Virus record (IMG/VR): IMGVR_UViG_3300011831_000028
Reading direction: 5' to 3' (one strand)
Length of the DNA: 36,868 bases
From: a virus
Lineage: Duplodnaviria > Heunggongvirae > Uroviricota > Caudoviricetes
Shown here one piece after another: positions 8,544 to 35,250 of this stretch. The notes under the pieces are model-generated. The model did not search any database, had not been told where the DNA came from, and saw nothing but the letters and a program-made list of their open reading frames with translations. A program made the position numbers and the translations under genes. Positions within the stretch are counted from its first letter, which is position 1, and each line of letters starts with the position of its first letter.

Positions 8544-9716
8544 TTACGCGCTGACCTGGCTGGCGAAATTCACCAGGTACTGATCGGTGATGCGCTGGCG
8601 CAGCATCAGATTTTCAAGTGGCGGCACTGGCGTGTAGTCATAGTCGATGGTGAGTTTTCCGGCTTTCAGCGTGTCTTTATCGTTCACCGACTCATCCAGC
8701 CAGCAATCACCACCAATGAGATAGCCCTGACTGACCAGGCTGCGCATTTTGGCGCGGATACCTTCGATAATGTCGCGCGCCAGCGACGGGTTCAGCGGTT
8801 TGTCCACCGCCCACATGTGCGCTTCTGCCATTGTGTCCATCAGTACCTGCGCTGTGCGGGTGTAGTTTTCGAAGGCAAAGAGCGGGTCATCACTCAGACA
8901 GCGGGAACCCCAGAAGCGGAAACCGTCCTTGCGCACAAGCGTGGTGACGTCGTTCTGGTTCAGCAGTCCCGCATCTGTTGCCGGGTCCTGCAGATCCCAG
9001 AACACATCAGCAGAAATTCCGGTGACACCGTTCACGCCCACGTTGGACAGGCTTTTGTGCCACCCAGTCTGCTCATCAATTTTGGCGCGCAGACCAAGCG
9101 CACGGGCGGTGGCATATGCCATTGCTTCGGCGTTCAGCACCGTGTCCCAGCCAGTAAAGTCAGGCCAGATCAGCATCCCTTCGCGCTGGCTAAAGTTTTC
9201 ACGGTAAGTGATCGCCTCCTGCACTGTCTTGCAGCCATACGCTGACAGGTAAGCAAACCCACGCAGGCTTTGCGCCACGCTCAGCAATTCAGTCGCAACG
9301 GCTTTGTTATCGTGGCCTGGCACGCCAAGAATGCGCGGTTTAACGCCGAGCTGTGACTGGGCAGATAACAGAGCTTTCATGCCTGTTTTTTTACCTTCAG
9401 CAGTCACTGCGCCGATGATATTGGTCGTGGTTTCTTCTTCCGTTTCACCCTGCGGCACACGCACAACAACGGTCACGGGTTTTGCCTGGTCAGCGATGGC
9501 ATCCAGCGAACGGGCCAGCGTGCCGGACTCACCCGCTTTACCGCTGGCAGTCAGCACATCAGTGATCAGAACAGGTTTGTTAAGAGGAAACATTTTTGCA
9601 TCGGCATCATCGCCCGTGCAGACCATGCCCACGATGGCGGTGCTCACCGTGGTAATGGATCGGGTGCCTTCGTTGACTTCAACAACGCGCACCCCGTGGT
9701 GGTAATCCTGAGCCAT
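8544..9716 (-). CDS. FI: contractile tail sheath protein gpFI-like
   Basis: 390-aa ORF at the head of the FI-FII-E-T-U-D operon; size and position match P2 FI. Confidence 0.85.
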
Positions 9717-9792
9717 AGTGGCGAACCTCCTGATTGGATTAGGCTTCGCCCTATGTTGAAGTGATTGTGCCTGACAAACAGCTAAGCGCAGT

Positions 9793-9810
9793 TGTACCGT
9801 TATTCACACA
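9793..9810. promoter_or_regulatory. putative Ogr-dependent late promoter element (TGT-N12-ACA) upstream of FI
   Basis: tgtaccgttattcacaca; shares the extended TGTACCG..CACACAAA context with the site at 21654-21671. Confidence 0.45.
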
Positions 9811-9858
9811 AAATGACGGTATTTGTCTACTTGCAGGGATAATCAAAATAATGCTGAT

Positions 9859-10425
9859 TCAGGGGGATTCATTGCTCTTATTTGCCGGAAATTTTCTATA
9901 AATTGTGGAAACACCCACATCAAAAATCAGTGCAATACGCTGTCTTGATTCTCCGGCCTCGAGTAAACGCCCAATCTGTGCCCACTGTTCGGTGGTCAAC
10001 TTAGGACGGCGTCCACCTACTCTGCCTTTGGCACGAGCTGCAGCCAGCCCTGCCCTGGTACGTTCAACTATCAGTTCGCGTTCCATTTCAGCCAGGGCAC
10101 CCATGACATGAAAAAAGAAACGGCCCATTGGGGTGCTGGTATCAATACTGTCAGTCAGGCTTCGGAAATTCACGCCTTGCTGACGCAACTCTTCTATCAG
10201 CGTAACAAGATGCCGCATACTGCGCCCCAACCTGTCCAGCTTCCAGACAACCAGCGTGTCTCCTGCCGATAGTGTCCTGAGCAGTTTTTTCAACCCTGGT
10301 CTGTCGGACTTAGTGCCACTGATTTTATCCTCAAAAATTCGCTCACATCCCGCGCAGTTCAGTGCATTACGTTGCAAATCGGTGTTCTGGTCATTTGTTG
10401 ACACGCGTACATAGCCAATAAGCAT
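9859..10425 (-). CDS. serine DNA invertase (Pin/Gin/Hin/Cin family)
   Basis: MLIGYVRVSTNDQNTDLQRNAL.., catalytic Ser region and C-terminal HTH; start placed at Met16 of the track ORF by alignment to recalled Pin. Confidence 0.9.
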   Translation of the reverse strand: MLIGYVRVSTNDQNTDLQRNALNCAGCERIFEDKISGTKSDRPGLKKLLRTLSAGDTLVVWKLDRLGRSMRHLVTLIEELRQQGVNFRSLTDSIDTSTPMGRFFFHVMGALAEMERELIVERTRAGLAAARAKGRVGGRRPKLTTEQWAQIGRLLEAGESRQRIALIFDVGVSTIYRKFPANKSNESP

Positions 10426-10480
10426 GAGCATCCCCCTGAATAAAAACCGGGGATGATGCCAGTTAACCATTATCTCTGCA

Positions 10481-10506
10481 TTTTCATAAACGTTGGTTTG
10501 GGAGAA
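10481..10506. repeat. gix-like recombination site (left boundary of invertible segment)
   Basis: Reverse complement ttctcccaaaccaacgtttatgaaaa shares the first 14 nt (ttctcccaaaccaa) with the site at 12167-12192; half-sites fit TTnTCnnAAACC. Confidence 0.65.
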
Positions 10507-11079
10507 GGCTCTGCATTACCTGTTGGTGTCCCTGTTCCGTGGCCTTCAGCCACTCCGCCAACAGGCTGGCTGAAATGCAATGGTGCGGCTTTTTCTGCTG
10601 AAGAATACCCGGAACTGGCAAAGGCTTACCCGACAAATAAATTGCCAGATTTACGTGGTGAGTTTATTCGTGGCTGGGATGGCGGGCGAGGGATTGATGG
10701 GGGGCGCATACTTCTCAGTTGTCAGAGTTTTGCTTTCCAGGACCATGCGCACGCTCTGCCAACCGGAGTGGGTAATCCGTCATACCAGATGGAAAGCGAT
10801 ATCTATACGGTTTTCAACGATGAACCAGAAATACCCAGTGCGGTCCTGAGTCCATCGTCGTCAGGAACATCATGGGACGCAACCAGTAGGGCAGACAAGG
10901 TAATCCTTTATCGCAAGGACCTTTCACCAACAGGTAATAACAACGAAATAGCGCCCGGATTACCACCATTCAGGACTTACAGGGCATCGACCTCAGACGG
11001 TGTTACTCATCCGTCCGTGTACGCATCTGAAACCCGTCCGCGCAACATTGCATTTAACTACATCGTGAGGGCTGCATAA
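10495..11079 (+). CDS. silent alternative tail-fibre C-terminal cassette (Sv'-like), promoterless in this orientation
   Basis: Frame reads NVGLGEGSALPVGVPVPWPSATPPTGWLKCNGAAFSAEEYPELAKAYP.. (tail-collar-type fibre tip) directly after the crossover site; opposite strand to H. Confidence 0.65.
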   Translation, partial: GLGEGSALPVGVPVPWPSATPPTGWLKCNGAAFSAEEYPELAKAYPTNKLPDLRGEFIRGWDGGRGIDGGRILLSCQSFAFQDHAHALPTGVGNPSYQMESDIYTVFNDEPEIPSAVLSPSSSGTSWDATSRADKVILYRKDLSPTGNNNEIAPGLPPFRTYRASTSDGVTHPSVYASETRPRNIAFNYIVRAA

Positions 11080-11684
11080 TGGCGAAAGCAAAATTAAACA
11101 GTGCGTTTATTGCCACCGTGGCAGGAGAAATCACTGTGTACAACTACCGGGGCGACACCCGCGAATACATATCCTCATCGCTTGAGTATCTGCCTGTGGG
11201 GGTGGGTATTCCTGCCAATTCCTGTACCGATGCGCCCGGCACACATAAGGCTGGTTATGCAATCTGCCGTTCTGCAGATTTTAACTCATGGGAATATGTG
11301 CCAGACCATCGCGGTGAAATTGTCTATGGCATCGAAACGGGGGAATCAAAAGAAATTACTGTGCCGGGGGATTACCCTGAAAATACGACCACTTTTGCCC
11401 CATTAACGCCATACGATAAATGGGATGGTGAGAAATGGGTAACAGATACCGAGGCACAGCATAGCGCCGCAGTAGATGCAGCAGAAGTACAGCGCCAGTC
11501 TCTGATTGATGCTGCTATGGCTTCCATCAGTCTGATTCAGCTGAAATTGCAGGCCGGACGTAAACTGACGCAGGCAGAAACAACCCGCCTTAACGCTGTG
11601 CTGGATTACATTGACGCGGTGACGGCAATAGATACCAGCACCGCGCCTGATATTATTTGGCCTGTATTCCCTGAGACTGATTAA
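11079..11684 (+). CDS. tail fibre assembly chaperone (Tfa/U'-like) for the silent cassette
   Basis: 201-aa ORF with conserved Tfa C-terminus ..RLNAVLDYIDAVTAIDTSTAPDIIWPVFPETD; start overlaps the Sv' stop. Confidence 0.8.
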   Translation: MAKAKLNSAFIATVAGEITVYNYRGDTREYISSSLEYLPVGVGIPANSCTDAPGTHKAGYAICRSADFNSWEYVPDHRGEIVYGIETGESKEITVPGDYPENTTTFAPLTPYDKWDGEKWVTDTEAQHSAAVDAAEVQRQSLIDAAMASISLIQLKLQAGRKLTQAETTRLNAVLDYIDAVTAIDTSTAPDIIWPVFPETD

Positions 11685-11913
11685 CCTCAATCAGTATTGG
11701 TTCGCCTTTCTTATTAATTGTTAGCTCCATGCCCTGACGAATTTCTGTCATAGTAAAAAACCAGTTGTCCTCCGGTAATTCAATAGCCCCGGTCACGTCA
11801 TGAAGACCGGGGATTACTTCAGTCAAAGTAACTGGATTAAACAGGCGCACAATAAACCCTCCATGAAAAAGCATTTGATGATGGTCTGCCGTCGTACATC
11901 TGGCAGCGGGCAT
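11653..11913 (-). pseudogene. possible truncated remnant of a tail fibre assembly gene for the expressed orientation
   Basis: 86-aa ORF overlapping the 3' ends of both H and the plus-strand tfa; weak resemblance to Tfa N-termini (LFNPVTLTEVIPGLHDVTGAIELP); only ~150 bp exists between H stop and tfa stop. Confidence 0.3.
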
Positions 11914-13228
11914 AAAAGCCGGTATTTGTTACCTGATCATCCACGATCATTGAAACGTGAACATTATTAGGTGTGCTCTCGTAATCCGTTCTTATTCTTT
12001 CTGCGATACTGATAAAACGTGAAAGTTTAGGCAGTGCAATTGGGTAAACGACTTTAGCCAGTCCATTATCATTAGATCCACCGGTTCCAAATACTTCTAT
12101 TGCACCATCTGACCAGCGTACCCATGCACCATTGGCATTAGCTCCTCGCTGAATGACATATCTGGCTTCTCCCAAACCAAGGTATGTGAGAAGACCAGCT
12201 ACATCCTTTCCACTCAAATTGGTAAGCGTATTGTCCAGCGGTTGTTTACCTGACAGCGCATTAAGCATTGTCGTGGCAAAGTTCGGATCATTCCCCAGTG
12301 CCGCCGCCAGTTCGTTCAGTGTATCCAGTGCCGCAGGTGCAGAACCCACCATTGCCGCAATCGCCGATTTCACAAATGCCGTGGTGGCAATCTGTGTATT
12401 GTTGACCGACTGTGCCGCAGTAGGTGCTGTTGGCGTTCCGGTGAGTGCCGGACTCGACAGCGGCGCTTTCAGTGCCAGCGCATTGTTAATGGTGGTACTG
12501 AATTTCGGGTCATTGTTTATGGCTGCGGCAATTTCTTTCAGCGTGTCCAGCGTGGCTGGCGCACCATTAATAAGAGCCGTCAGTGCCGCCTGAACAAACG
12601 CGGTGGTCGCAACCTGCGTGGTGTTATTCCCCGCCGCTGGCGTTGGCGCTTTGGGTGTCCCGGTAAACGTAGGACTTTCTTTGGGTGCATACTGTGAATG
12701 CGGGTCCGGTGCTGCAAGATGTTTTGCCATCTGATCATCCACGTACACCTTCAGCTCCAGTACCTTATCATCCACATACTTGCGGGTTGCCAGCACTACG
12801 GCAGGGTCGATTTTCAGGGTGATATTGTCCGTGCTGCTGGTAATCAGCACCATGCGCACGGTCTGGGTACGCCCGCTGCCTTCAGCCAGTTGCGGCTTAT
12901 AGCTTTCCGGGCAGTTTCCCACGGCAATCAATGCCCCGGACTCATCAAACAGGCCCACTTCACGTATCCACCAACCGCCCTCGTTTTCAGGGATCACCTG
13001 TTCAGCAATAATCTGGCTACTGTTCTGCGGGTCGATATAAAGCATATTCAACGCAGCCCGGCGTTTCTCATTTACCAGTGCCGTCTGCTTTGCGTCCGGC
13101 GTCGGTAATACTCCGCCGCCATCGCCGACCGCCATATGGGTAATTTTTAGCGGCACACCGAGCGCGGCGGCGCTGGCAAGTTTCGCCGCGCCAATATCCG
13201 TCAGCAGGGTATAAAATTTTGTGCTCAT
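11837..13228 (-). CDS. H: tail fibre protein gpH-like (constant N-terminal part plus currently expressed variable tip)
   Basis: 463-aa ORF, Ala/Thr/Pro-rich repeats (TGTPKAPTPAAGNNTTQVATTAFV twice) typical of tail fibre shafts; crossover site embedded near codons LGLGE. Confidence 0.85.
   Translation of the reverse strand: MSTKFYTLLTDIGAAKLASAAALGVPLKITHMAVGDGGGVLPTPDAKQTALVNEKRRAALNMLYIDPQNSSQIIAEQVIPENEGGWWIREVGLFDESGALIAVGNCPESYKPQLAEGSGRTQTVRMVLITSSTDNITLKIDPAVVLATRKYVDDKVLELKVYVDDQMAKHLAAPDPHSQYAPKESPTFTGTPKAPTPAAGNNTTQVATTAFVQAALTALINGAPATLDTLKEIAAAINNDPKFSTTINNALALKAPLSSPALTGTPTAPTAAQSVNNTQIATTAFVKSAIAAMVGSAPAALDTLNELAAALGNDPNFATTMLNALSGKQPLDNTLTNLSGKDVAGLLTYLGLGEARYVIQRGANANGAWVRWSDGAIEVFGTGGSNDNGLAKVVYPIALPKLSRFISIAERIRTDYESTPNNVHVSMIVDDQVTNTGFYARCQMYDGRPSSNAFSWRVYCAPV
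12167..12192. repeat. gix-like recombination site inside tail fibre gene H (right boundary of invertible segment)
   Basis: ttctcccaaaccaaggtatgtgagaa, inverted relative to 10481-10506; encodes in-frame GLGE in H. Confidence 0.65.
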
Positions 13229-13830
13229 GGATTCACTCTCATTGTGTCAATAACATGGACCGCCCCGCCTTCATGCGCGGTGCCGCCAGAAATAATTGTT
13301 TCGTTGATATACGGATAGATCGTGATTTCTTCGCCAAGATAGCTGGCGGCCCCCACCCAATGCGGACCGCTGGTCTGCAGATTGATGGACATGCCGATCA
13401 TGTGACGGCTACATGGTTTGGCATCGCTTATCAGCCGCTCAAGTTCCAGATAGGTATCTTCAGTGATGCCCTGGTCCTGCACGCCGATATCCAGGCGAAA
13501 CGTGCCCGGTGTTTCTCCGGTCTGCCACCACTCAATAATGCGGATCAGGAATCCGAACGGTTCCACCACCCGCCGCACGGCACTGGTAGTTCCTTTATGC
13601 TGATGAATATAAAAAGCATCCTTCACTACCTGGCGTTTGACGCTTTCTGTCCAGCCCTCGTCCCAGCGATCCACAGAGAACGCCCAGGCGAGATAAGGCA
13701 GGAAGCTGACCGGACAGGTAGCCGGATTCCACAAGTCACGCAGCGGCACCTGCAAATCAGAAATCCCGCTACAGGTTTGCGCCAGTCGGCGCTCCAGTGA
13801 AGTTGAACCCGGTGGCAGCAGACTATTCAT
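13225..13830 (-). CDS. I: baseplate assembly protein gpI-like
   Basis: 201 aa; LWNPATCP..LPYLAWAFSVDRWDEGW..GTFRLDIGV matches recalled P2 gpI. Confidence 0.85.
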   Translation of the reverse strand: MNSLLPPGSTSLERRLAQTCSGISDLQVPLRDLWNPATCPVSFLPYLAWAFSVDRWDEGWTESVKRQVVKDAFYIHQHKGTTSAVRRVVEPFGFLIRIIEWWQTGETPGTFRLDIGVQDQGITEDTYLELERLISDAKPCSRHMIGMSINLQTSGPHWVGAASYLGEEITIYPYINETIISGGTAHEGGAVHVIDTMRVNP

Positions 13831-14731
13831 CCGTTCCTCCGTTGGTTACGCTCCACTGCGTACATGATGCCGCCTGTGTTTTGTTCAGGACCACATCCGC
13901 CAGCGGAGAAGCCAGTTCCACACGTTGAACACCCTCAACATGCAGAGCAGCAAAGATGGCGCTACGGCGAATATCCCGACCAAGCCTCGTCTGGCTGGCA
14001 ATGTACTTCTGCAGACTGGCTTTTGCCGCTGCCATTACCGGCTCTGCTTCCGGTCCCGGATAGAGAAAAATGGTGGCTTCCACGCGATACGGGATGATTT
14101 CTGCGCTGCGAACCGTAAGACGGTCAGCCACCGGGCGGACGTTCTCACTGTTCAGAGCTTTTTCCACCACGTCCAGCAGGTCTTTTTCTGCAGTTCCATC
14201 GCCTTCGCGGCTAAGGACAGTCAGCACCACCTCTGCAGGTGCCGGGCTGGTTGCACTGGCATCCGCCACCCGACCGTCGGCGCTTCGGGCATGAAATTCA
14301 TAAGCTGCAGTTGGCCCCGCAACAGAAAGCCCTTCAAAGGCTGCAGGCACACGCAGGCGCAACGCTTCATCGCTTTCCATCACAGCTGCAACGGGCGGCA
14401 CAGCATCATTATCAGCAGGCGTCACCGTCAGGCGTGTCACGTTGTAGTTGGCAGCGAGCTGGTCAAGATCGCCGCCCATCGCGTAAGCCACCATCACCGC
14501 CTGCGCGGCTTCGTTAATGCGCTGGCGCAGAAGCAACTCACGGTAAGCGTTCTCCTGCAACAATTTAGTGGCGGGTTCAGATTCCAGTTCCAGCGTGCGG
14601 ATCACTGCTTCCTGCTCATCTTTCGGATGAAGCGCCACAAATTCTGCCTTGCGTTCGGCAAGCAGCGTCTCAAAGTCCGGCACATCCACAATCTGCGGTG
14701 CAGGCAACTGCGAAAGGTCAATCACTGCCAT
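13823..14731 (-). CDS. J: baseplate wedge protein gpJ-like
   Basis: Start at MAVIDLSQLPAPQIV (aligned to recalled P2 gpJ MPIIDLNQLPAPDVI); ~302 aa. Confidence 0.85.
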   Translation of the reverse strand: MAVIDLSQLPAPQIVDVPDFETLLAERKAEFVALHPKDEQEAVIRTLELESEPATKLLQENAYRELLLRQRINEAAQAVMVAYAMGGDLDQLAANYNVTRLTVTPADNDAVPPVAAVMESDEALRLRVPAAFEGLSVAGPTAAYEFHARSADGRVADASATSPAPAEVVLTVLSREGDGTAEKDLLDVVEKALNSENVRPVADRLTVRSAEIIPYRVEATIFLYPGPEAEPVMAAAKASLQKYIASQTRLGRDIRRSAIFAALHVEGVQRVELASPLADVVLNKTQAASCTQWSVTNGGTDE

Positions 14732-15077
14732 TCTCTGCTCCTGTTGATACGGAAAGGGACACAGGCACACCGTTATTCCGCCGCCCGGTCAGCTCCACCA
14801 CCATTGAACCGTCAAAATTGCTGTTGATGGTGATGGAATCCAGCGTCAACCGTGGCTCCCAGCGACTCAGCGCCACATACACTGCCGACATGACCTGCAG
14901 GCGTAATGCCGGATTTTGTGGCTGATCTATCAGTGCCGACAGCAGGGAACCATATTCCCGGCGGGCAATACGGCTACCCTGCGGTGTCAGCAGAATGTCC
15001 CGCACCGACTGGCGCAGATGATCAATATCAGTAATGACTTTGCCGCTGGTATTGTTCATCCCGCTATAAAGCGTCAT
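14718..15077 (-). CDS. W: baseplate protein gpW-like (gp25/GPW family)
   Basis: 119 aa; ..DILLTPQGSRIARREYGSLL..WEPRLTL.. pattern of GPW family. Confidence 0.85.
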   Translation of the reverse strand: MTLYSGMNNTSGKVITDIDHLRQSVRDILLTPQGSRIARREYGSLLSALIDQPQNPALRLQVMSAVYVALSRWEPRLTLDSITINSNFDGSMVVELTGRRNNGVPVSLSVSTGAENGSD

Positions 15078-15699
15078 ACCGGGCCTCCGGTTGTATCGCC
15101 GCCTTTCAGGACGCCAGTATGCTGATGCGCATCAACCACGATCCCGTTAGAACTCATCGCTCCGCCGCCCTGGGTAACGCCACCATTGATCACCACTTCG
15201 CTGTTAATGCGCGTGCGGTCAGCCTCCAGTACAAACTCACTGGTTTTCATGGTGATGTTGTCAGCAGCCTCAATGACCATTGATTTGATGCCCCTGACAT
15301 ACCAGCGCCCGGTGGCGGGTTCGTATTCAAACCAGCCACCGTCAGGATGTTCTGTCACGCAGGCGTCCGCCGACGTCGACGGTGGTGCGAACTGATTCGA
15401 ATAGACAGCGGGCAGCGCAAAGGCGGTTTCCAGATTGCCGCCCAGACTCAGCAGCACGCCCGTGGTCACGCCCTGCTCGGGCGTCAGGCCCGAGGCAGCC
15501 AGCANNNNNNNNNNCCTTCCGATGGTCGCCACCATGTACGGGCATTCCCGGCACGCAGCGTCAGCCAGCTGATCCAGTTGGTTTCAAGCTCGCCCGTTTT
15601 CACCCGGCAAAGCCAGTTTTCCCTGTCCACTTCGGTGACTACCCCTGTGCGGATCAGGTTGGTGATAAGGCGCATGATTTCGGTTAATTGTGCGTTCAT
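15074..15699 (-). CDS. V: baseplate spike protein gpV-like, interrupted by an assembly gap
   Basis: N-terminal piece (..RTGVVTEVDRENWLCRVKTGELETNWISWLTLRAGNARTWW) and C-terminal piece (..HTGVLKGGDTTGGPV) lie in different frames either side of N10 at 15505-15514. Confidence 0.7.
15505..15514. other. run of 10 N (assembly gap)
   Basis: nnnnnnnnnn in the sequence. Confidence 0.99.
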
Positions 15700-15745
15700 A
15701 GTGAAAGGTTGCCATCAGGGGAAGAAAGGCGGCAGTGCTGCAACT

Positions 15746-15763
15746 TGTATCAGTGCTGATACA
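15746..15763. promoter_or_regulatory. putative Ogr-dependent late promoter element (TGT-N12-ACA) upstream of V
   Basis: tgtatcagtgctgataca, 47-64 bp upstream of the V start codon. Confidence 0.4.
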
Positions 15764-15767
15764 AAGA

Positions 15768-16214
15768 TCACCCCGCCAGCCATTGCAGAATCATGTCGCG
15801 GGTCATTGCCTCAACATCATCATTTACACCCAGAAGGCGACGCTCTGCGTAACGCACCTCCGGTCCCTTACGACTGACGCGATCTCGCAGGCCGTAATGG
15901 TGAACGCGGGCAATGCGCTGCACCTTGCCTTCAAACTGCACGCTGGCAGAGTCGGTGCTGGCGGCAGTTTTCAGGTATTTTGTGGTGCGCAGCTTTGCAA
16001 ACATCTGACGTTTGATACGGCCTTTTTTACTGCGTGCTGTTACCCGTCGCGGTTCATAGCTGCTGCCGTCAGGGTTGCGCTGCATCCTGATATTCTGCTG
16101 CTGTGTCCGGCGAAGTTCCTGCGCCAGCTGGCGCATCATGCGGCTTCTCGAGGCTGGTTCCAGATTCGCCAGCAAGGCACTCAGCCAGTCGTCCACCTTC
16201 TGCAGTTCAGCCAC
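15768..16214 (-). CDS. S: tail completion protein gpS-like
   Basis: 148-aa ORF in P2 order R-S-V. Confidence 0.8.
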   Translation of the reverse strand: MAELQKVDDWLSALLANLEPASRSRMMRQLAQELRRTQQQNIRMQRNPDGSSYEPRRVTARSKKGRIKRQMFAKLRTTKYLKTAASTDSASVQFEGKVQRIARVHHYGLRDRVSRKGPEVRYAERRLLGVNDDVEAMTRDMILQWLAG

Positions 16215-16659
16215 GTTTCACCGTCCACATTTCTTCAGGTGCATCAGGTTCCGCTATAGCTTCAACGCTCGACACACTGCCGTCAGTGCTGACCAGCACA
16301 CGTTCCGTCAGTTGCAGGTTCAGGCTGATATCACAGACATCGTTGCGCAGAATATCCACCTCAAAGGTGAATAGCTTTTCCCGTAACGCCGGGTTATTGA
16401 TGGCATCGGGCTGGTTATCCCTCAGCCACAGCAAAACCGGGGCCATCAGCAGATTCTGGTCGCCGCTGAAATCCTCAATCACCGCGTTCAGTGTGTAACG
16501 GTACTCCCACGACATGGAGCTGGCCCCCGTGGCAACCAGCGAACCGTTATCCACAAACAGATGCAGTTTGTCCGGGTTATTGCGGACATAAGGCACCGCT
16601 TTATTGAGGGCGTGGCGCAGGGATTGTGGTTTGTTCACTGTTTCGCTCCTGACACGCAA
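16207..16659 (-). CDS. R: tail completion protein gpR-like
   Basis: 150-aa ORF between the lysis cassette and S. Confidence 0.8.
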   Translation of the reverse strand: MRVRSETVNKPQSLRHALNKAVPYVRNNPDKLHLFVDNGSLVATGASSMSWEYRYTLNAVIEDFSGDQNLLMAPVLLWLRDNQPDAINNPALREKLFTFEVDILRNDVCDISLNLQLTERVLVSTDGSVSSVEAIAEPDAPEEMWTVKRG

Positions 16660-16891
16660 TAATCATGTCCACTTTGTCTGCACAGACCGCCCAGGCGGCC
16701 TCCGTTTCATCCAGCAACGCGTTCAGATCACCGTTAGTGCGCGGCGTTGCCTGATCCAGCCGACACGGCGTCACTCGCGGACAACCACTGACGGTAAGCC
16801 ATACCTCCGGTGAGTGCCGGACGTTTCCGCAGCCGGATAATGTCAGCAGGCAAAGGAGTATCAGCCCAGCGGCGTAAATCCTCGTTCTCAC
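16601..16891 (-). CDS. lysC: o-spanin LysC-like (Rz1-type lipoprotein), embedded in/overlapping lysB
   Basis: Signal peptide with lipobox LTLSGC, Pro-rich; out-of-frame overlap with lysB. Confidence 0.7.
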   Translation of the reverse strand: MRTRIYAAGLILLCLLTLSGCGNVRHSPEVWLTVSGCPRVTPCRLDQATPRTNGDLNALLDETEAAWAVCADKVDMIIACQERNSEQTTIPAPRPQ

Positions 16892-17162
16892 GTTTCAGTT
16901 CCTCGATCCGGTGTTGTCGTTGTCTCAGCTGTGTGCTGGTCTGTTCTGCTTCGGCATAGAGCCGCGCCTGCTCCCGGTTATTGGTTTCAGTCAGAATGGA
17001 CAGGCTGATAAGCTGGCTATTGCTCTTTGCCAGTGCCTGGCTTTTGCTCTGCAGCTCGTCTGCCTGCGTGCTGATGGTCTGGCTGGCATCAGCCAGCCGC
17101 CACGTCTGCCAGCCCAGCGCCGCCAGTAATAACGTCAGCACAACCAGCAGCAACCGGTTCAT
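16734..17162 (-). CDS. lysB: i-spanin LysB-like (Rz-type)
   Basis: N-terminal TM helix, charged coiled-coil-like body. Confidence 0.75.
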   Translation of the reverse strand: MNRLLLVVLTLLLAALGWQTWRLADASQTISTQADELQSKSQALAKSNSQLISLSILTETNNREQARLYAEAEQTSTQLRQRQHRIEELKRENEDLRRWADTPLPADIIRLRKRPALTGGMAYRQWLSASDAVSAGSGNAAH

Positions 17163-24565: not shown

Positions 24566-25975
24566 TTACTCATCTACTCTGATTTTTTGTTTTTTATTAT
24601 TTTGAGTTAAGACATTTATGGTAATAGATGTATACGGATGAAAGTCAGGCACTATACTTTTAACCTCTCCATTTTCAAGAAAATGATGTGCTATTGAAGG
24701 AAATAAATCAGGATCTACAGGATATTTAGCATTAGGATTATGATACATATTTAAACCTTCTGCCCATGTTTCTGTAATATCGCCTTCTTTCACTTCAAAA
24801 CTAAATGCTGCTGGATATAATGCCTCTGGGTCATGATCATGGCAGTAACCACTCCTAAATAATCTAAGGTCACTTCTTCCAAAACCAGCCAGTTTTCCCA
24901 TCCGATTAAACTTCGATATAGTACCACTATTAGAACTAAGGACGGCCGAAATATTTTCAGACTCATCCAAGAAGAAAAAGCCTGAAGGAATTTCCTTTTT
25001 CTCAAATTGATGCGATATAATTTTCTTAGTTGCTAAACTGTAACATCCATCTTCAGATTTAACATGCTCATAGCGAATACCATAAAGATACTGCCAAAGT
25101 GCACTATGGGACCAAATCATAGAGTTTGGTTCATGAAAATCAGCAATTGCGAAAATTAAAGGATTCCCCTTAACATGTTCTAGATCCCAGTATCGAGTTT
25201 TCTTTTTCAGTTTAGAATAGAGAGAACTTCCAAATTTAATCGGCATATAATTCTCTATTTTCTCTAGCAATTCTTCCTTACTTTTAGGTTCAGATAGCAT
25301 TTCAGATGATTGATTAATATCATTCCCTGTTGGATTAACCGTTACAGCTTCAATGCAAATAGTATTACCATACTTACGTGCCACATAATCAGGGGCATTA
25401 AACTGCCTATCTAGCCAAAAGTGTTCCTCTCGTAAATATGCGAAAAGATATAACTCCCATAGCCGGGCATCAAAACCTGTTGTCTGAAACTGCTCTATAA
25501 AATTCCCGTCGACATCCTCAAAATGATTCATCATTTCCTTGATTATCCCTGTTGCAGGCGACCAGTTCGCGTATTTACCAAATAATGAAAAATGATGATG
25601 AAGTTTATCTGGTGTAACTATAGGTGTGAATAAATCCATTGCTTTATAAGTTTCATCACCTTGTGGAAATACTTTTACGTTTAATTTAGTATGCTTCCGC
25701 ATTAATTTCTTTAGTTTTGCTCGTGCAGAATTCATTTCTGAAACACTAGTAAATAGGTCAATACATCTATATCTCCCACTTAAGTCTCTTGCTAAAACAA
25801 TACCGCTATAATCTTCATCGATTTGATCCAATAATAGTGCCCCTAGCAGGAACTCTCTCGGACTACAGTACCACTCAAACTCATAGCCTAAAAGTTCAGT
25901 ATTTGGCATTCTGGTCCAATCAACAAAAGCATTAAACCTCTCTTTACTCATTTTTTTTATATCAAGAAAAGACAT
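24566..25975 (-). CDS. hypothetical 469-aa protein, A+T-rich accessory gene between portal gene and cos
   Basis: Uninterrupted ORF with GAGG Shine-Dalgarno 8 nt upstream of ATG; no family recognised by eye; convergent with Q. Confidence 0.6.
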   Translation of the reverse strand: MSFLDIKKMSKERFNAFVDWTRMPNTELLGYEFEWYCSPREFLLGALLLDQIDEDYSGIVLARDLSGRYRCIDLFTSVSEMNSARAKLKKLMRKHTKLNVKVFPQGDETYKAMDLFTPIVTPDKLHHHFSLFGKYANWSPATGIIKEMMNHFEDVDGNFIEQFQTTGFDARLWELYLFAYLREEHFWLDRQFNAPDYVARKYGNTICIEAVTVNPTGNDINQSSEMLSEPKSKEELLEKIENYMPIKFGSSLYSKLKKKTRYWDLEHVKGNPLIFAIADFHEPNSMIWSHSALWQYLYGIRYEHVKSEDGCYSLATKKIISHQFEKKEIPSGFFFLDESENISAVLSSNSGTISKFNRMGKLAGFGRSDLRLFRSGYCHDHDPEALYPAAFSFEVKEGDITETWAEGLNMYHNPNAKYPVDPDLFPSIAHHFLENGEVKSIVPDFHPYTSITINVLTQNNKKQKIRVDE

Positions 25976-26882: not shown

Positions 26883-29297
26883 TTAATACAGGTTCCGCCA
26901 CTGATCATCTTCTTGCAAACGCTGGTTCCGATAGAAGATACGCAGGCCTGCTCCTGACGGAATACTGCCTCCGCGAAGGAGTAAATCGACCTCTTTCTCG
27001 CTGCCATCAAATCCTCTGGACTTCAGCTCATACACGAGCTGCAGTCGCTGATGGTCTGTAATTCGCTGTTTGTAGTCTTTACGCCGTTTCGGTTTCACCA
27101 GGCGTAACCTTGCAGCCAGTTCCCGGCGCTCTTTTTTGTTCATACTGTGCAGGTAATCGTGCAACTCCTTGTCATCCATGCTGGTAATGTCCGTTCTGGG
27201 GTCCCCATCAGCTGATTTATCTTTCTCCTGTTGGTTCAAATTTTCAGCAAGGGGACAGTTATTGCCACGAGTCCAAGGGGCGCAAGCGCCCTGGTCGGCT
27301 GCCGCCTCCTGAACGTCAACGACCTTACGAACCATTTTCCATTTCATTGCATGAGTGCAGATCTTGCCCTGTACAATGGGTGACCAGATGCCATAAATAC
27401 GAATACCGTGATCGCCATAAGCGGTCGGCTCTTCGTTAATTTCATAAGCTGTTCTGATAAGGTGATATTTGCGGGGAACCAGTACGCCGCCCTGCTTCAT
27501 GATGTAGGTGGCAAAACAGCCAGCATCAGCGGCAGCCAGGATGGCATCAAGGCGCGGGTCATCCAGTACCGGCGCACCTGCTTTTTTGTCACCCTGTTGC
27601 CTTGCCGCCTGACCAGCCAGCAAGCGAAGTTCACGGTACGCCTGACGCCCCGGAATACCAAAGAAGCGGAACTGCTGAACACGATGCAGAGACGCCCAGG
27701 CATTAACGTATTCGGCGTTATCACGCAGGGATTTACCCGTTTCCTTGCTGATCTCGCCAGCCAGACCACGTCCGTCAATGTTCTTACTGATGTATTTCGC
27801 GATGTAGCTTGTCGGCGTTCCTTTGCGCGGGTTTATCAGCTCAGACTTAAAGCGTGGACCCGTGTTATTGCCCAGTTCCTCGCGGTCTTCACGGATGGCA
27901 AACTTACGCAACAATGCAGTAATGGCGCGGCGGTCTTTTTTGCGCATGAAACACATGAGATGCCAGTGCACAGTACCGTCATGGTGCGGCTCAGCCACCC
28001 GCACGCCATACCAGCGCAACCCGGCTTTGTGCATAGCCTTACGAAATGCAGCAAACATGCCGACCAGATAATCGCTGCTTTGTCTTACCGTCGCATTTGT
28101 CCAGGTTGGGTTTGGTCTGCCGTTATTGAGCGTAGAATGGAAACGTGACGGACAGGTAATGGTGTAGAAAACGGCGCAGTCACCACGCATTTCCGCGATA
28201 AGCTCCAGACCTTTAACACAGGCCATCATCTCATTGCGGCGGTGCGCCGGGTTGCTGCTGCTGGCGTTTACCACATCTTCCATATCCAGCGTGTCGCCGT
28301 CTTCGTTCACCAGTTCATGAGAACGGAAAAACTCCAGCGACTTGCGGCGCTGCTCACGTTTATGCGTCACTGCTTCATAGCTGACATAGGGAGATGCTTT
28401 TTTGCTGACCAGGCAGACAGCACGCAACTGCTCTTCCCGCCATTCGCAACGTATCTTCCACAATTTTCGATACCACCAGTCGGCGCAAAGCATACGTGCC
28501 AGCGAACCCGGTATGAGTTCATAGGGCACGGGTTTGCGGCGGTTTCTTTTCCGACGGAGTTTCTCAAACGCAGGCGGGATAACATCCAGACGCAGGGTTT
28601 CCGCTGCCACCTTTTCCCATGTCTTGCGGATTTCTTCTGGCTTAACGTCATCGGAGGCATACAAATCACCACAAGCGGCCTCAAGACACATGCTCATATG
28701 CGCTGCTACCAAGGTGGACAGGCGTTTTACCTGATCCTGACTCATTTCAGGCAGGATCAGCAGGCCCTCAAGCCTTTGATGGCTTGCCATAAAACGGAAA
28801 GAAGCGGATAGCTGACTGTCGCGTACATACTCCAGTCGCTCCAGACATGACTTAATCGTCTCACGCAAATAGCGGGAATAAGCCTTTGGCCTGCCCAGGC
28901 TGCTGAAGTATTCGATACGTTGCATCAGCGGCTTGCTGATGTGGGTGGGCTGGGCGCTGACGTCCGCCAGAATGACCATGTCCGGGTTAAAACGCTGCTG
29001 CTCATGCGCCAGCTTTGCCCGACTAATGAGATTATCCTGCTCCATTTCGCGCTGGACAGGATCACGGGATTCATTAAAGAAATAACGCTCCCAGACCTGC
29101 TCACTCAGTGCATCGCGGCGCAGCTGTTCCTGCTCGTTATCGGCAGCGTACAGAGTGATCATGTTTGAAAGTGCAGACTCCGGCGCAACTTCCGCCGGGT
29201 CCAGATAAGGGTTAATGGCCTTTTTCGGGCCGTTCCATGAAAATGCTGCAGCGGCCTCGTTAAAGCCGCTAGAGTTGCTCATATCATCATGACTCAT
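26883..29297 (-). CDS. A: replication initiation endonuclease gpA-like (rolling-circle)
   Basis: 804-aa ORF in the P2/186 A position between early genes and cos. Confidence 0.85.
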
Positions 29298-30151
29298 ACA
29301 CGCACCTCGTACACAGCAGAACTATCCACGCCACGCGAAGGATCAAATCCCACCCAGCAGCGCGCCCCGGAAACAGCAATGATTTCTGTTGCAGATTTAC
29401 TCTCGCCAGCCGACACGCCGATGCTGCGTTTTGCCTTGATGTAGTGGTGAGTGAAATTGCGATACAGCGAACGAATCAGGGATGTGTCACTGTTAGAAAC
29501 AATGACCGGATGACCTTCAGATGATCGATGTTCAAGAACGGATGCCAGGTGATACTGGTCATCCTCAGTGAAGCCATCAGTGTGATAGCCGGAAAACGTA
29601 CCGTCATAAGGCGGATCGCAATACACCACATCCCCCGCCTTCAACATCGCCAGCGTTTCATCAAAGCTGGCGCAGATAAACGTTGCTCGCTGGGCTTTTT
29701 CTGCAAATTTGCGAATTTCTTTTTCAGGGAAATACGGATTTTTATAATTCCCGTAGGGAATGTTGAAATGCCCGCTCTTGTTATAGCGACATAACCCACG
29801 GTAACCATGACGATTGAGATACAGGAAATATACCGCTTTCATGAAATCAGTAATTTCAGTGGAGTAATTAAACTCCTGCCTTATGTTGTAATAAGCCACC
29901 TCCCTGTTTGCTTCCTCAAATAAAGCTCTGGCACGAGATATAAACGCCTCGCAATCAGCAGCAACCTTTTTATAGAGGTTGATTAAATCAGGATTAATAT
30001 CCGCAACAAGATAGCTGGGGTAATCCGTCTCTATCATCACAGCACAAGAACCCGCGAAAGGTTCAACCAGTCGCGGGCCAGCAGGAAGGTATTTTTTCAG
30101 TTCTGGCATAATGGCGGTTTTATTACCCGCCCATTTCAGGATGGTGCTCAT
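29294..30151 (-). CDS. DNA N6-adenine methyltransferase (Dam family)
   Basis: LKWAGNK, FAGSCAV (motif I) and DPPY (motif IV); start at Met21 of the track ORF, ATGA overlap with upstream gene. Confidence 0.85.
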
Positions 30152-30375
30152 ACAGCACCTCCGTTGTAATGTTTGCCTTTCAGCTCTGCGATTTCCTGAC
30201 AGGTAATGCAAAGCTGCACACCCGGAATGGCGCGACGTCGTGCTGGCGGAATTGGTGCTTCACACTCAATGCAAAGCACGCGGGATACGCCCGGCGTTTT
30301 GGCGTGGGCAGCACGGATATGACGCTGGCGTTCTTCTTCAACGCGCTGCTGTACGAGATCCATTGCATCAGCCAT
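30148..30375 (-). CDS. TraR/DksA-family C4 zinc-finger protein
   Basis: CIECEAPIP..RRRAIPGVQLCITCQ. Confidence 0.75.
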   Translation of the reverse strand: MADAMDLVQQRVEEERQRHIRAAHAKTPGVSRVLCIECEAPIPPARRRAIPGVQLCITCQEIAELKGKHYNGGAV

Positions 30376-31952: not shown

Positions 31953-32077
31953 GATGCAACATTCCTCGTTTAATGTTGATTAATCAGGACGAATACGGAT
32001 CGTTTGTATTTTGTGAACATCATAAACATACGATCGCATAATGAAATCGTCAAGACAAAAGTTCACTTGGAGTGACC
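31953..32077. promoter_or_regulatory. cI/apl divergent promoter-operator region
   Basis: 125-bp intergenic with palindrome tgattaatca (31975-31984), repeated atacg(g)atcg (31993-32002 and 32029-32037) and inverted gtgaac/gttcac (32013-32018 and 32061-32066). Confidence 0.5.
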
Positions 32078-32647
32078 ATGAATTTGGAGAAAGGCGGACG
32101 AGGCGCTATAGAGCGCATGGTAGAAGCATATGGCTTCAAGACTCGACAGGCGTTGTGCGATCACTTAGGAATCTCTAAAAGTACTCTCGCCACACGCTAT
32201 ATGCGTGACTCATTCCCTGCTGAATGGGTAATCCAGTGCGCACTTGAAACGGGCGCCTCGCTTAACTGGCTCACGACCGGACATGGTTCAAAGCAAACTT
32301 CAGGTAATACAAATACTATGGAAGTCGTTAAATATGTATTATCTGATGGAACCTTGCAGGAAGATGGTTTTTATATTTTCGATAAAGAATTTCTACCATC
32401 TACGCTCAAAAATCCGTTTGTAATCACCGATAACAATTCCGTTTTTATTTGCGATAAAGAGTTTAACGATATTCGTGACGGCAAATGGGTAATAAGTATT
32501 GATGCCGAAGTAACAATCCGCGATATCACTCGTTTACCTGGTGGAAGAATCTTAGTTGAAGGTGGAAATAGGGCTTTCGAATGTAAAAAAGAAGAAATCG
32601 AAATTATTGGAAAAATTATAAGCATAACAGTTAAGTACTTTGAGTAA
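32078..32647 (+). CDS. cI: immunity repressor CI (186-type, N-terminal HTH plus C-terminal oligomerisation domain)
   Basis: MNLEKGGRGAIERMVEAYGFKTRQALCDHLGISKSTLATRYMRD..; GGAG 6 nt upstream of ATG at 32078 (track ORF begins at GTG 32072). Confidence 0.8.
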   Translation: MNLEKGGRGAIERMVEAYGFKTRQALCDHLGISKSTLATRYMRDSFPAEWVIQCALETGASLNWLTTGHGSKQTSGNTNTMEVVKYVLSDGTLQEDGFYIFDKEFLPSTLKNPFVITDNNSVFICDKEFNDIRDGKWVISIDAEVTIRDITRLPGGRILVEGGNRAFECKKEEIEIIGKIISITVKYFE

Positions 32648-32697
32648 TATAGGAATGTTTTTATGCTTGGTAAAGCATTTGTTGTGGTGTAAAAAAT

Positions 32698-33621
32698 ATG
32701 TCAACTCAAAAATTAAAATTTAGCCATATCAAAAACGATCTGAAAGCAATAGTTATGCAGAATCGTGGAGGGCAAAAAGTTATTGAGCGTATACTCCTAG
32801 CCTATGGCTTCAAGTCACGACAGGCATTATGTAATCATCTAGGTATTTCCCAAAGTACTATGGCCAACAGATATGCACGTAATACCTTTCCTGCAGATTG
32901 GGTTGTTATATGTTCCATAGAAACAGGAGCATCAATTGAATGGTTAGTTCTTGGTTCAGATACTGCTCCTTCATCAGAGCAATATTCTGAAAAACATGCC
33001 GTTAATGGCCTTTGCAATGAAGTATACATTCCCACTATAAAGTTCGATAATGAAAAACTCATGAATTTTAACCGAGGGGGTAAGGCAACAATAGAACGAA
33101 TTGTCGAGGCTTACGGTTACAAAACGCGCCAAGCATTAGCTGATCACCTAGGTATTTCAAAAAGCACATTAGCCACACGATACATGCGTGACATTTTTCC
33201 TGCAGACTGGGCTTTGCAGTGTGCAATAGAAACGGGCCATTCTATTGAATGGATTTCATTTGGTACAGGAGAAATGAAAAACGCAAAAAATAAAGATACT
33301 TTAACATTAGTGAAAAAAGTATTAATCAATGGCAAGTTAATAAATGATGGCTCATATTTATTTGACCCATGCTTTCTACCTTCCAATTTAAAAAATGCAT
33401 TCGTAGTATCTACCGAAGACTCTGAATTAATATGTGAAATGGGTTTTAAAGATGTACATGATGGTAAGTGGCTAGTAAATATTGATGGAGAGAATTCATT
33501 TAGAATGATAACTCGACTACCTAAAGGACGAGTTTATATTTCATCCCAAAATCACTCTTTTGAATGTTCGCTTACAGATATTGAGTTTATTGCAAAAGTT
33601 ATTATAAGTTGTTTACATTAA
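32698..33621 (+). CDS. CI-paralogue with two tandem CI-type HTH domains and a CI-like C-terminal domain
   Basis: Residues ~23-88 and ~117-182 each align to the CI N-terminal domain; second copy has recognition helix SKSTLATRYMRD identical to CI; C-terminal ~100 aa aligns to the CI C-terminal domain. Confidence 0.7.
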   Translation: MSTQKLKFSHIKNDLKAIVMQNRGGQKVIERILLAYGFKSRQALCNHLGISQSTMANRYARNTFPADWVVICSIETGASIEWLVLGSDTAPSSEQYSEKHAVNGLCNEVYIPTIKFDNEKLMNFNRGGKATIERIVEAYGYKTRQALADHLGISKSTLATRYMRDIFPADWALQCAIETGHSIEWISFGTGEMKNAKNKDTLTLVKKVLINGKLINDGSYLFDPCFLPSNLKNAFVVSTEDSELICEMGFKDVHDGKWLVNIDGENSFRMITRLPKGRVYISSQNHSFECSLTDIEFIAKVIISCLH

Positions 33622-33646
33622 GTAAATTTTTCATGGAGACTTCATA

Positions 33647-35164
33647 GTGAAATGTGGTGATTGTAATTGGAACTGGGATGAAGAAACTACCTTTATATTA
33701 GACGACGAAGAGGAAATTCTTTCCAAAGACAAACTTAATCGGAGACACTATGCAGAATATCTATATTTTTATCTTAAGGAAAAGGGGCAAAAGAACAACA
33801 CGGTAATCAACCTTAATGCAGAATGGGGAGCTGGTAAAAGTTTTTTCATAAAGAGATTTTATAACTCAATAAAAGATGCACACCCATGCGTTTACATTGA
33901 TGCCTGGAAGCAAGACTTTTCTGATGATGCATTTTTAACCCTTTTTTCTTCTTTGTCACAACAATTGCAAACATATGCAGGAAAACTTGATGCTCGATTG
34001 ATACAAAGCGGCCATGCTATCGGACGCTTTACAAAAGGTGTTCTACCTGAAATCATATCTGGCCTAATCAAGACTTATGCAGGAGTAGATAACGTAGGTG
34101 ATATAGCCAAAGAAGCCTCATTAATAATGCTGAAGGAACACCAGGAAAAACTGAAGAGCATTAAGGTATTAAAAAAAGAACTAACGTTATGGTCTAGGTT
34201 GGCATATGAAAATAGTTTTTCATGTCCTATATTTATCTTTATAGATGAATTAGACAGATGCAGGCCAGATTATGCAATTTCTCTTTTAGAGATTGTTAAA
34301 CATATATTCGATATTAAAAATTTTGTCTTTATTATTGCTACTGACACAGATCAATTACAACATTCAATCAAGAATGTTTACGGTAATGATTTTTCCGCAA
34401 ATGACTATTTAGGCCGTTTTTTTCATAGAAGATTTACTTTAAAACAACCTGAACTTAAAGATTTAATTAATGGTGTTGTTGGTGATTATATTGGTACCGA
34501 TTTTGAAAATATCACATCAAAAACATACCCACTAACAGCAACATTAGAAGACTTTTCAATAAATATTTCCAACGTATTTGAAGCATTTGGGTTAAATCTA
34601 AGAGACTCAATCCGAAATACTGAAAGGTTAATAGACATTCTTAAATCTGATTTAGTCAAAAAGAAAGTAGATTATATTTTTATAATTTCGCTAATGATTA
34701 TATATGATAAGGATCGTCAAATTATAGATGGACTAATTGGTCGAAGAAATGCAGCACAACGTTTCACTGATTCGATAAAGCAAAGCTCCAATTTAAAAGG
34801 TGTTTCTCAAGCCATCCTTGAATTAAATCTTGATACAAATCAGCAAAGAATAGGTGTCAATTATATCTATAGAACGGCGAGCAGTAGATTATTCATCTCA
34901 CAGATCGAGCCCAAAATAAATTTAACATTAATAAATTACTTAGATGTTGCATTGTATTTTATTAATAATATAAACATGCTTAAATCAAGTATAAAAAACA
35001 ATGGGCAAAATTCACTAATGATTATATCTCAACAAGGCCCTATTGATGGTGATACAGCTATAAAGTATTTGCAAGGAGCCCTTATAGAGAATGGTCTGAA
35101 TACATCTTTTTATGCCTTACATAATTACATTGAATTAATTGAACTGGCCACATCATTTGATTAA
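33647..35164 (+). CDS. KAP-family P-loop NTPase
   Basis: Walker A NLNAEWGAGKSFF and Walker B IFIFIDELDRCRPDYAISLLE, both hallmark KAP signatures; GTG start with GGAG upstream. Confidence 0.7.
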   Translation: MKCGDCNWNWDEETTFILDDEEEILSKDKLNRRHYAEYLYFYLKEKGQKNNTVINLNAEWGAGKSFFIKRFYNSIKDAHPCVYIDAWKQDFSDDAFLTLFSSLSQQLQTYAGKLDARLIQSGHAIGRFTKGVLPEIISGLIKTYAGVDNVGDIAKEASLIMLKEHQEKLKSIKVLKKELTLWSRLAYENSFSCPIFIFIDELDRCRPDYAISLLEIVKHIFDIKNFVFIIATDTDQLQHSIKNVYGNDFSANDYLGRFFHRRFTLKQPELKDLINGVVGDYIGTDFENITSKTYPLTATLEDFSINISNVFEAFGLNLRDSIRNTERLIDILKSDLVKKKVDYIFIISLMIIYDKDRQIIDGLIGRRNAAQRFTDSIKQSSNLKGVSQAILELNLDTNQQRIGVNYIYRTASSRLFISQIEPKINLTLINYLDVALYFINNINMLKSSIKNNGQNSLMIISQQGPIDGDTAIKYLQGALIENGLNTSFYALHNYIELIELATSFD

Positions 35165-35225
35165 AAGCATTGTTTGAATAAACTAAACCATACATTGACC
35201 ACTGGTCAAACATACAGTTAAATTT

Positions 35226-35250
35226 AGCCCTCTGATATGAGGGCTTTATT
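35226..35250 (+). terminator. hairpin plus T-rich tract immediately upstream of the int start codon
   Basis: agccctc tgatat gagggct ttatt; the 3' arm contains the GAGGG Shine-Dalgarno of int. Confidence 0.45.

Follow-up and report, generated by a model that had tools for sequence, protein, structure and literature searches.

The question raised by this locus is whether a segment of the tail-fibre region can be turned around by site-specific recombination and, if so, what is exchanged between its two orientations. The window (the whole stretch of DNA analysed, 36.9 kb) is a P2-like (Peduoviridae) prophage of Escherichia coli with the gene order V-W-J-I-H, as in P2. The annotation of near-identical loci gives this series followed by FI-FII-E-T-U-D-ogr, together with P2-type capsid genes and gpA. 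A Pfam Phage_GPA match and an integrase are present in the window, and its relatives belong to Peduovirus. The window is a scaffolded draft with a gap within the baseplate gene V. Truncation of gene V was considered and rejected; the interruption is a stretch of N that marks a scaffold gap, not a lesion. Because of this gap, the integrity of the prophage can only be partly assessed. We conclude that the tail-fibre region very probably carries a site-specific inversion switch of the Din family (Pin/Gin/Cin/Hin).

An inverted-repeat search of the window returned arms at 10481-10507 and 12166-12192 (27 nt, 85% complementary, spacing of 1658 nt), exactly where the earlier note had placed two inverted gix-like 26-bp sites with outer ends at 10481 and 12192. 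The invertase-proximal crossover site 1 (10481-10506) reads TTTTCATAAACG-TT-GGTTTGGGAGAA with its core at 10493-10494, and site 2 within H (12167-12192) reads TTCTCCCAAACC-AA-GGTATGTGAGAA with its core at 12179-12180. Both have a 12-2-12 architecture, lie in inverted orientation, and have a perfect 12-bp half-site (TTCTCCCAAACC) and the AA core in common; two inverted 26-bp sites with 12-bp halves and an identical 2-bp core are characteristic of the Din family. The 14-mer TTCTCCCAAACCAA occurs in two exact copies in the window, one on each strand. With up to two mismatches, shuffled sequence yields 0.18 matches; with up to three, two further matches appear in the window, far from the segment and at chance frequency. 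No third crossover site was found within two mismatches in the 36.9-kb window. We rejected a shufflon or multiple-inversion system (the p15B Min type or the three-repeat P2-like locus type of EPEC) because it requires at least three sites and only two were found. Site 1 agrees at 26/26 positions with the crossover site next to pinE in the P segment of e14 and contains the e14 repeat as published, TTGGTTTGGGAGAAGG (PMC12529663). The second comparison with the e14 sites gave 22/26 identical positions, and those with the P1 cix sites 19-21/26. The half-site and AA core of both sites also occur in the e14 and P1 sites.

The DNA invertase gene (9859-10425, minus strand; 188 aa, Pin/Gin/Cin type) is not part of the segment and points away from it. 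The product has Pfam Resolvase (E=4e-53) and HTH_7 (E=2e-15) domains, and its residues 1-184 align collinearly with structures of Gin from Mu (3uj3 and 4m6f; E=3e-92); the catalytic Ser9 and the motif VRVSTNDQ are present. Residues 141-183 match the DNA-binding domain of Hin. Identity is 86% to e14 PinE and approximately 74-79% to Mu Gin and P1 Cin. These are the features of a Din-family recombinase, an approximately 190-aa serine recombinase with an active-site Ser9/10 and a C-terminal HTH, and they confirmed the adjoining Pin/Gin-type invertase described previously. An inactivating lesion in this gene had been named as grounds for abandoning the proposal. None was found: the gene is full-length and 123 of the 132 positions invariant among PinE, Cin, and Gin are kept, the remaining nine changes being conservative. 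The P1 record annotates an enhancer at cin nt 19-90, and the homologous nt 19-90 of the invertase gene (10336-10407, minus strand) are presumed to form a Fis-dependent recombinational enhancer. This region is coding sequence and is 79% identical to cin and 86% identical to pinE, versus 71% and 80%, respectively, for nt 91-405. Its synonymous codon identity is slightly higher (e.g., 10/19 versus 32/86 against cin), although these numbers are small. We infer from this homology inside a coding region that inversion may depend on Fis and the enhancer.

The tail-fibre gene H (11837-13228, minus strand; 463 aa) has the residues GLGE at crossover site 2. Its constant N-terminal part, residues 1 to approximately 350 (12179-13228, minus strand), matches Pfam Phage_tail_fib over residues 1-150 (E=4e-65). 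The currently expressed variable C-terminal tip (11837-12178, minus strand) was defined from the translation. Its AlphaFold model (pLDDT 80, pTM 0.71) matches the fibre feet of R-type pyocins (6ct8, 6cl6, and 6cxb) and AP22 gp53 (4mtm) with TM of 0.61-0.65 and E=1e-4 to 9e-4, and the tip models as a gp53/R-pyocin-foot-like domain. The alternative tip ORF occupies the non-fused position on the plus strand (10453-11079) and carries GLGE in frame; it has a 14-codon leader outside the segment. Its variable part (10495-11079) is StfE-like, with a Pfam Collar domain (E=2e-15) and 58% identity to e14 StfE, and matches the tail fibre families phrog_523 and phrog_3100. The tail fibre assembly gene of this tip (11079-11684, plus strand; 201 aa) has a Pfam Caudo_TAP domain (E=2e-30) and is 86% identical to e14 TfaE. 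No NCBIfam name was obtained for the fibre proteins. Both H tips look like receptor-binding domains. They comprise 109 aa (current) and 190 aa (alternative) after GLGE, close to the approximately 110 and 195 aa claimed previously, and the GLGE junction said to be present in H and in frame in the opposite ORF was seen in both translations. By analogy with Mu, P1, and e14, the non-fused cassette would be silent. The promoter scan of 9700-13400 gave three promoter-like matches versus 4.7 expected, a chance level that is uninformative on the description of the alternative ORF as promoterless, and the terminator scan of the same region gave seven terminator-like matches versus 3.9 +/- 1.9 expected, at or near chance.

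The invertible segment is the 1684 bp between the two core dinucleotides (10495-12178), and its in-silico flip matches natural genomes. After the flip, the constant part of H fuses in frame at GLGE with the StfE-like tip, H changes from 463 to 544 aa, and the start of the TfaE-like gene overlaps the stop of the 544-aa H. This is the exchange of tips, with tfa placed behind H, that the earlier note had predicted. The fused protein is identical at 542/544 positions to the annotated H of strain MB06173 and is annotated as a single gene in flipped genomes. Both fusions are followed by a partner gene, and the locus shows the exchange of 3' exons with cognate downstream genes that is characteristic of phage members of the Din family. 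Among complete E. coli genomes with at least 80% coverage, 20 had the segment oriented as in the window and 36 had it flipped. The flipped sequence was found as a single 99.9%-identical piece over 3601 bp in strains MB06173 and SW071618, and the unflipped sequence likewise in NCTC9064. Over 23,601 bp, the sole difference between strains 64 and 61 is a 1658-bp block that is an exact reverse complement; similarly, DG341-1 and DG342-2 are identical over 15,526 bp except for an exactly reverse-complemented block of 1583 bp. The breakpoints in these clonal pairs fall inside the 15 bp common to both sites. Breakpoints in the core, as in Din-family inversion, were observed in other genomes, for copies that are homologous or 99.9% identical to the window's. 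Since the clonal pairs differ by the inversion alone, flipping is recent and frequent. The presence of both states in complete genomes, including clonal pairs, also disposes of the objection anticipated previously, that only one orientation might ever be found. The cassettes recur within invertible segments of P2-like prophages of Hafnia and Enterobacter.

These genomes bear on two other explanations. Inverted repeats in general can mislead assemblers, and the differences in orientation might be assembly artefacts or the result of RecA-mediated recombination between the repeats. However, 15 identical bp are too short to mislead long-read complete assemblies or to act as a RecA substrate, the breakpoints lie exactly in a Din-type site adjoining a Din invertase, and e14 inversion at the same sequence was confirmed by PCR and qPCR (PMC4272514, PMC12529663). 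We give this explanation almost no credence. It is also very improbable that the locus is a frozen relic in the window's strain, with its parts intact, inversion ceased (e.g., due to a defective enhancer or promoter), and the other genomes recording old events. We found no positive support for such a relic, and the clonal pairs distinguished by inversion alone, the 99.9%-identical copies of the window in both states, and the intact invertase, sites, and enhancer-homologous region all argue against it.

In the Din-family mechanism that we propose, the invertase would bind both 26-bp sites and cut each at the central AA/TT dinucleotide, probably aided by host Fis on the enhancer in the 5' end of the invertase gene. 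One pair of half-sites would then be turned by 180 degrees and religated, and the segment between the cores would be flipped. Codons 1 to approximately 354 of H, the constant part that ends in GLGE and is transcribed from the late tail operon, would be joined to either of two C-terminal receptor-binding tips, each accompanied by a partner gene. With the segment oriented as in the window, this would be the 109-aa gp53/R-pyocin-foot-like tip with the 65-aa gene described below behind it; after a flip, it would be the 190-aa StfE-like Collar tip, and the TfaE-like assembly protein would come next. A lysogen population may thereby give virions of two adsorption specificities, presumably with different host ranges. 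By analogy with Mu, P1, and e14, the function is presumably host-range phase variation.

A switch that mainly serves the host was also considered. A chimeric short fibre protein (MMPVNHYLCIFINVGLGE plus a tip), produced from the proximal ORF in the lysogen, might block other phages, and e14 offers a precedent: PinQ/PinE-driven inversion of its P segment was reported to give StfE2, which blocks T2 adsorption (PMC12529663). This invertase-proximal ORF starts from a separate ATG, 40 bp beyond the segment, PGAP calls it a gene in both states, and 126-127-aa versions of it are abundant in databases. However, the window has the full P2-like late and tail gene set, unlike e14, which makes virion host range the default role, and a promoter for the proximal ORF was not detected in the 9700-13400 scan, which performed at chance level. 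A mainly host-serving switch therefore appears unlikely. The two roles are compatible with each other.

Switches of this type are already documented in e14, Mu, P1, Fels-2, and EPEC P2-like prophages, and the window is an ordinary, intact example. The P segment of e14 and PinE of E. coli K-12 were reportedly described by Plasterk and van de Putte in 1985. The present locus resembles e14 in its invertase (86%), its proximal site (26/26), the same half-site and AA core in the other site, an invertase gene that lies beyond the segment and points away from it, the StfE/TfaE-type cassette (58%/86%), and the segment length (1.7 kb versus 1.8 kb in e14). In contrast, e14 is a defective lambdoid remnant, whereas the window's P2-like prophage has its tail operon complete, and the second cassette is StfP/TfaP in e14 and the gp53/R-pyocin-foot-like tip with the 65-aa gene here. 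The e14 repeats were validated experimentally (PMC12529663, PMC4272514). The G segment/Gin of Mu and the C segment/Cin of P1 share with this locus the enzyme family, 12-2-12 sites, a constant fibre N-terminus with alternative C-termini and an assembly gene for each, and an enhancer within the 5' part of the gene for the invertase, which in the window is presumed from homology. However, their segments are longer (3 and 4.2 kb versus 1.7 kb), the core is AA here, as in cix and pix, but GA in gix, and the P1 site adjoins cin at its 3' end, but that of the window lies upstream of where the invertase gene starts, an arrangement also seen in Mu and e14. Salmonella Hin depends on a Fis-bound enhancer. 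The Hin/H segment system has the same recombinase family and site architecture; however, what it inverts is a promoter, which switches flagellin genes, and hin is part of the segment, whereas a coding exon is swapped here and the invertase lies outside. A swap of the fibre C-terminus by inversion was demonstrated or inferred for Fels-2 fin (PMC7953296) and two prophages of E. coli E2348/69 (PMC4272514). According to their descriptions, the Fels-2 and E2348/69 P2-like prophages are of the same phage family and have the locus in the same position, with H on one side and the sheath gene on the other; three repeats and four variants are described for one EPEC prophage, versus two sites in the window.

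Under the labels given by automatic annotation ('recombinase family protein', 'phage tail protein', and 'hypothetical protein'), this probable host-range switch goes unseen. The H gene of the prophage has two alleles, and the one recorded is set by the state that the assembly caught. This is relevant to prophage typing and host-range prediction, and the inversion may be misread as a rearrangement in genome comparisons. Its importance beyond annotation is small.

The conserved 65-aa gene of the current tip (11653-11850, minus strand) has a GTG start and overlaps the H stop; it is presumed to encode an assembly partner. The protein gave no Pfam or NCBIfam match, Caudo_TAP (PF02413) included, the hhalign probability against the Tfa alignment was 0.6% (no profile similarity), and the Foldseek search of PDB, with a weak model (pLDDT 69), returned nothing below E=1. 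A remote relationship to Caudo_TAP was rejected because hhalign and Foldseek were both empty-handed. A truncated tfa was hinted at by PHROG 5400, which the protein matched over profile positions 1-66 of 145 only. However, homologues, 110 in number and 57-66 aa long (for some, the start was called further upstream), were found in Escherichia, Salmonella, Enterobacter, Citrobacter, Hafnia, and Erwinia. In Erwinia sp. 9145, the homologue is located between H and the sheath gene, without an invertase or a Caudo_TAP gene; this P2-like cluster is non-invertible, and the homologue occupies the position of the tail-fibre-assembly gene (gpG). Since the length is constant across six genera and one homologue stands alone in the gpG position, we concluded that the ORF is not a truncated tfa. 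Therefore, the current orientation is not an incomplete state, which corrects the earlier note, but a complete cassette of H followed by the conserved 65-aa gene. Tentatively, this gene could stand for a minimal class of tail-fibre partners or chaperones that has yet to be described and has no relationship to Caudo_TAP; it would be cassette-borne and dedicated to gp53/R-pyocin-foot-like tips. The gene and such tips are paired in invertible segments as well as in the non-invertible P2-like tail cluster. This small conserved gene is a modest lead for research on tail-fibre assembly.

The region lies in an E. coli P2-like prophage adjoining ybjL and is 99.9% identical to strain NCTC9064 across the switch. 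The tail-fibre gene H (11837-13228, minus strand; 463 aa) encodes a P2-type N-terminal fibre domain. Genes I, J, W, and V have higher window coordinates than H and are upstream of it; the sheath gene FI is at 8544-9716 (minus strand). A small gene encoding 65 aa (11653-11850, minus strand) follows H, and its GTG start overlaps the H stop codon. On the plus strand, an alternative-tip ORF (10453-11079) starts 40 bp outside the invertible segment and, from the GLGE junction on, encodes a Collar-domain fibre tip that is 58% identical to StfE of the e14 element. The adjoining assembly gene (11079-11684, plus strand) encodes a Caudo_TAP protein of 201 aa that is 86% identical to e14 TfaE.

The in-silico inversion of 10495-12178 generated an uninterrupted H of 544 aa, in which the StfE-like tip continues the reading frame of the constant part from GLGE on. 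The TfaE-like gene comes directly behind, its start overlapping the stop codon of the 544-aa H, and the invertase-proximal ORF then encodes a 127-aa protein bearing the other tip. The 544-aa protein was identical to the annotated H of strain MB06173 at 542 of 544 positions. The exchange of tips by inversion, as proposed in the earlier note, was thereby reproduced in silico.

The earlier note proposed a check for both orientations, and both were present in the copies of other genomes. All complete E. coli genomes were searched with two queries, the as-found region and its flipped version, and matches with at least 80% coverage were counted. The as-found orientation was detected in 20 genomes (best NCTC9064, 99.9%) and the flipped orientation in 36. 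The flipped version matched MB06173 and SW071618 at 99.9% across all 3601 bp, each as a single piece, which places the breakpoints inside the shared repeat. Clonal strain pairs provide a stronger test of inversion than these genome-wide counts. The Swiss environmental isolates 64 and 61 carry the element at the same coordinates, and over 23,601 bp the two differ solely in a block of 1658 bp, whose sequence in one isolate is the exact reverse complement of that in the other. Similarly, DG341-1 and DG342-2 have equal genome lengths, and across 15,526 bp they differ only in a block of 1583 bp that lies between the same sites and is exactly reverse-complemented. E. coli NCTC8623 (NZ_LR134234.1) harbors two homologous copies of the locus (4934129-4937681 and 13384-16936), one in each orientation, and both states of a W-type copy with IS3 were present among assemblies.

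A repeat search recovered the inverted repeat of the earlier note, with arms of 27 nt at 10481-10507 and 12166-12192 (85% complementary, spacing 1658 nt). Site 1 (10481-10506) reads TTTTCATAAACG-TT-GGTTTGGGAGAA and site 2 (12167-12192) reads TTCTCCCAAACC-AA-GGTATGTGAGAA, both in a 12-2-12 arrangement. Both sites carry a perfect copy of the segment-internal half-site with the core, TTCTCCCAAACCAA, and the rest of the window has none. When up to two mismatches were permitted, 2 matches were counted versus 0.18 expected from shuffles; allowing three added just two distant matches at chance level. By sequence, the crossover sites are of the pix/cix type. Site 1 agrees at all positions (26/26) with the e14 P-segment site proximal to pinE, both e14 sites have the half-site and AA core of site 2, and P1 cixR is identical to site 2 at 21/26 positions. 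The published e14 inversion-point repeats, TTGGTTTGGGAGAAGG and CCTTCTCCCAAACCAA, were matched in the window at 16/16 and 15/16, respectively (PMC12529663).

The invertase gene (9859-10425, minus strand) encodes Resolvase and HTH_7 domains and, as in Mu and e14, lies beyond the segment, with its reading direction pointing away from it. Residues 1-184 aligned to the Mu Gin crystal-structure sequences 3uj3 and 4m6f (E=3e-92), and identities were 86% to PinE, ~79% to P1 Cin, and ~74% to Gin. The active-site serine is kept within VRVSTNDQ; of the 132 positions at which PinE, Cin, and Gin all agree, 123 are retained and the other nine carry conservative changes. The invertase is intact. In the Hin, Gin, and Cin systems, invertase dimers on two sites synapse at a Fis-bound enhancer, and cleavage at the 2-bp core is followed by rotation and religation. 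The present switch would follow the same route of synapsis, core cleavage, rotation, and religation, with inversion enforced by its AA core, which is non-palindromic. In the P1 record, the annotated enhancer spans nt 19-90 of cin; the homologous stretch here, 10336-10407, has 79% identity to cin and 86% to pinE, compared with 71% and 80% deeper in the gene. Conservation at its synonymous codons is slightly higher. These values are suggestive of, but not decisive for, a putative recombinational enhancer. The leader separating the invertase start codon from site 1 contains a terminator-like hairpin with a T-run (AACTGGCATCATCCCCGGTT TTTATT; 10445-10464, minus strand), which the pinE leader of e14 retains in part and which might hold invertase expression low.

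The initial observation is confirmed, and its interpretation as a tail-fibre inversion switch is supported. This kind of switch is already known, and Mu, P1, and e14 are the textbook examples. Inversion was documented by sequencing and PCR in two P2-like prophages of E. coli E2348/69 (PMC4272514) and inferred for Salmonella Fels-2 from a comparison of the LT2 and LT7 genomes (PMC7953296). Genome-wide screens for programmed inversions also include tail fibre genes (PMC9881135). Inversion in e14 has been proposed to also shield the host from T2 via a chimeric fibre fragment (PMC12529663). The present element may have such a role; however, it would be secondary because the prophage is apparently complete.

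The present orientation had been regarded as the incomplete state, a view that we correct herein; this orientation, too, carries a complete cassette. The 65-aa ORF matched just positions 1-66 of the 145-column PHROG 5400 profile, which prompted its consideration as a truncated gene. Its homologues argue against truncation: all 110 are about 57-66 aa (some called from upstream starts), and they occur in Escherichia, Salmonella, Enterobacter, Citrobacter, Hafnia, Pseudescherichia, and Erwinia with the conserved core MRLFNPxTxTEVIPGxHDxxGAIELPxDNWFF...GEPxL. The P2-like cluster of Erwinia sp. 9145, which has neither an invertase nor a Caudo_TAP gene, likewise argues against truncation: the homologue has H as its immediate neighbour on one side and the sheath gene on the other, and the H tip is homologous to that of the window (C-terminal 210 aa, 44% identical). 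In Hafnia and Enterobacter soli, the homologue is one cassette of invertible segments, the other being a Gp53-like_C tip with a Caudo_TAP gene, and the 65-aa protein had no profile similarity to Tfa proteins; both points also argue against truncation. Its weak structural model yielded no fold match. Across several enterobacterial genera, the P2-like tail clusters with a member of this ~60-aa family (11653-11850, minus strand, in the window; L011, 5001-5189; L012, 4001-4195; L013, 4001-4186) always have a fibre tip of the gp53/R-pyocin-foot-like type next to it; the members are annotated only as hypothetical. The current 113-aa H tip gave a good model (pLDDT 80, pTM 0.71) resembling the receptor-binding foot of the R-type pyocin fibre and AP22 gp53 (TM 0.61-0.65, E=1e-4 to 9e-4). 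Together with the evidence on the 65-aa gene, these matches make it plausible that each orientation encodes a receptor-binding tip with its own partner gene. The conserved 65-aa partner is the sole mildly new element.

Elsewhere in the window, baseplate gene V (15074 to about 15652, minus strand) contains, at 15458-15514, 10 N beside ~47 nt lacking alignment to relatives. The N run is a scaffold gap, indicating that the window derives from a draft assembly. A 469-aa ORF (24566-25975, minus strand) without a Pfam match has a full-length PADLOC match to PD-T7-1 (E=1e-196); this anti-phage gene occupies the P2 cargo hotspot that separates portal gene Q from replication gene A. A Dam-like D12-class N6-adenine methyltransferase gene (29294-30211, minus strand) adjoins gene A. 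At 32072-36303 (plus strand), genes for two CI-repressor-like proteins (191 and 307 aa, the latter with a duplicated HTH) precede that for a KAP P-loop NTPase, which matches the PADLOC candidate PDC-S20 (E=8e-78), and the integrase gene comes next; this stretch is possibly a second defence cargo.
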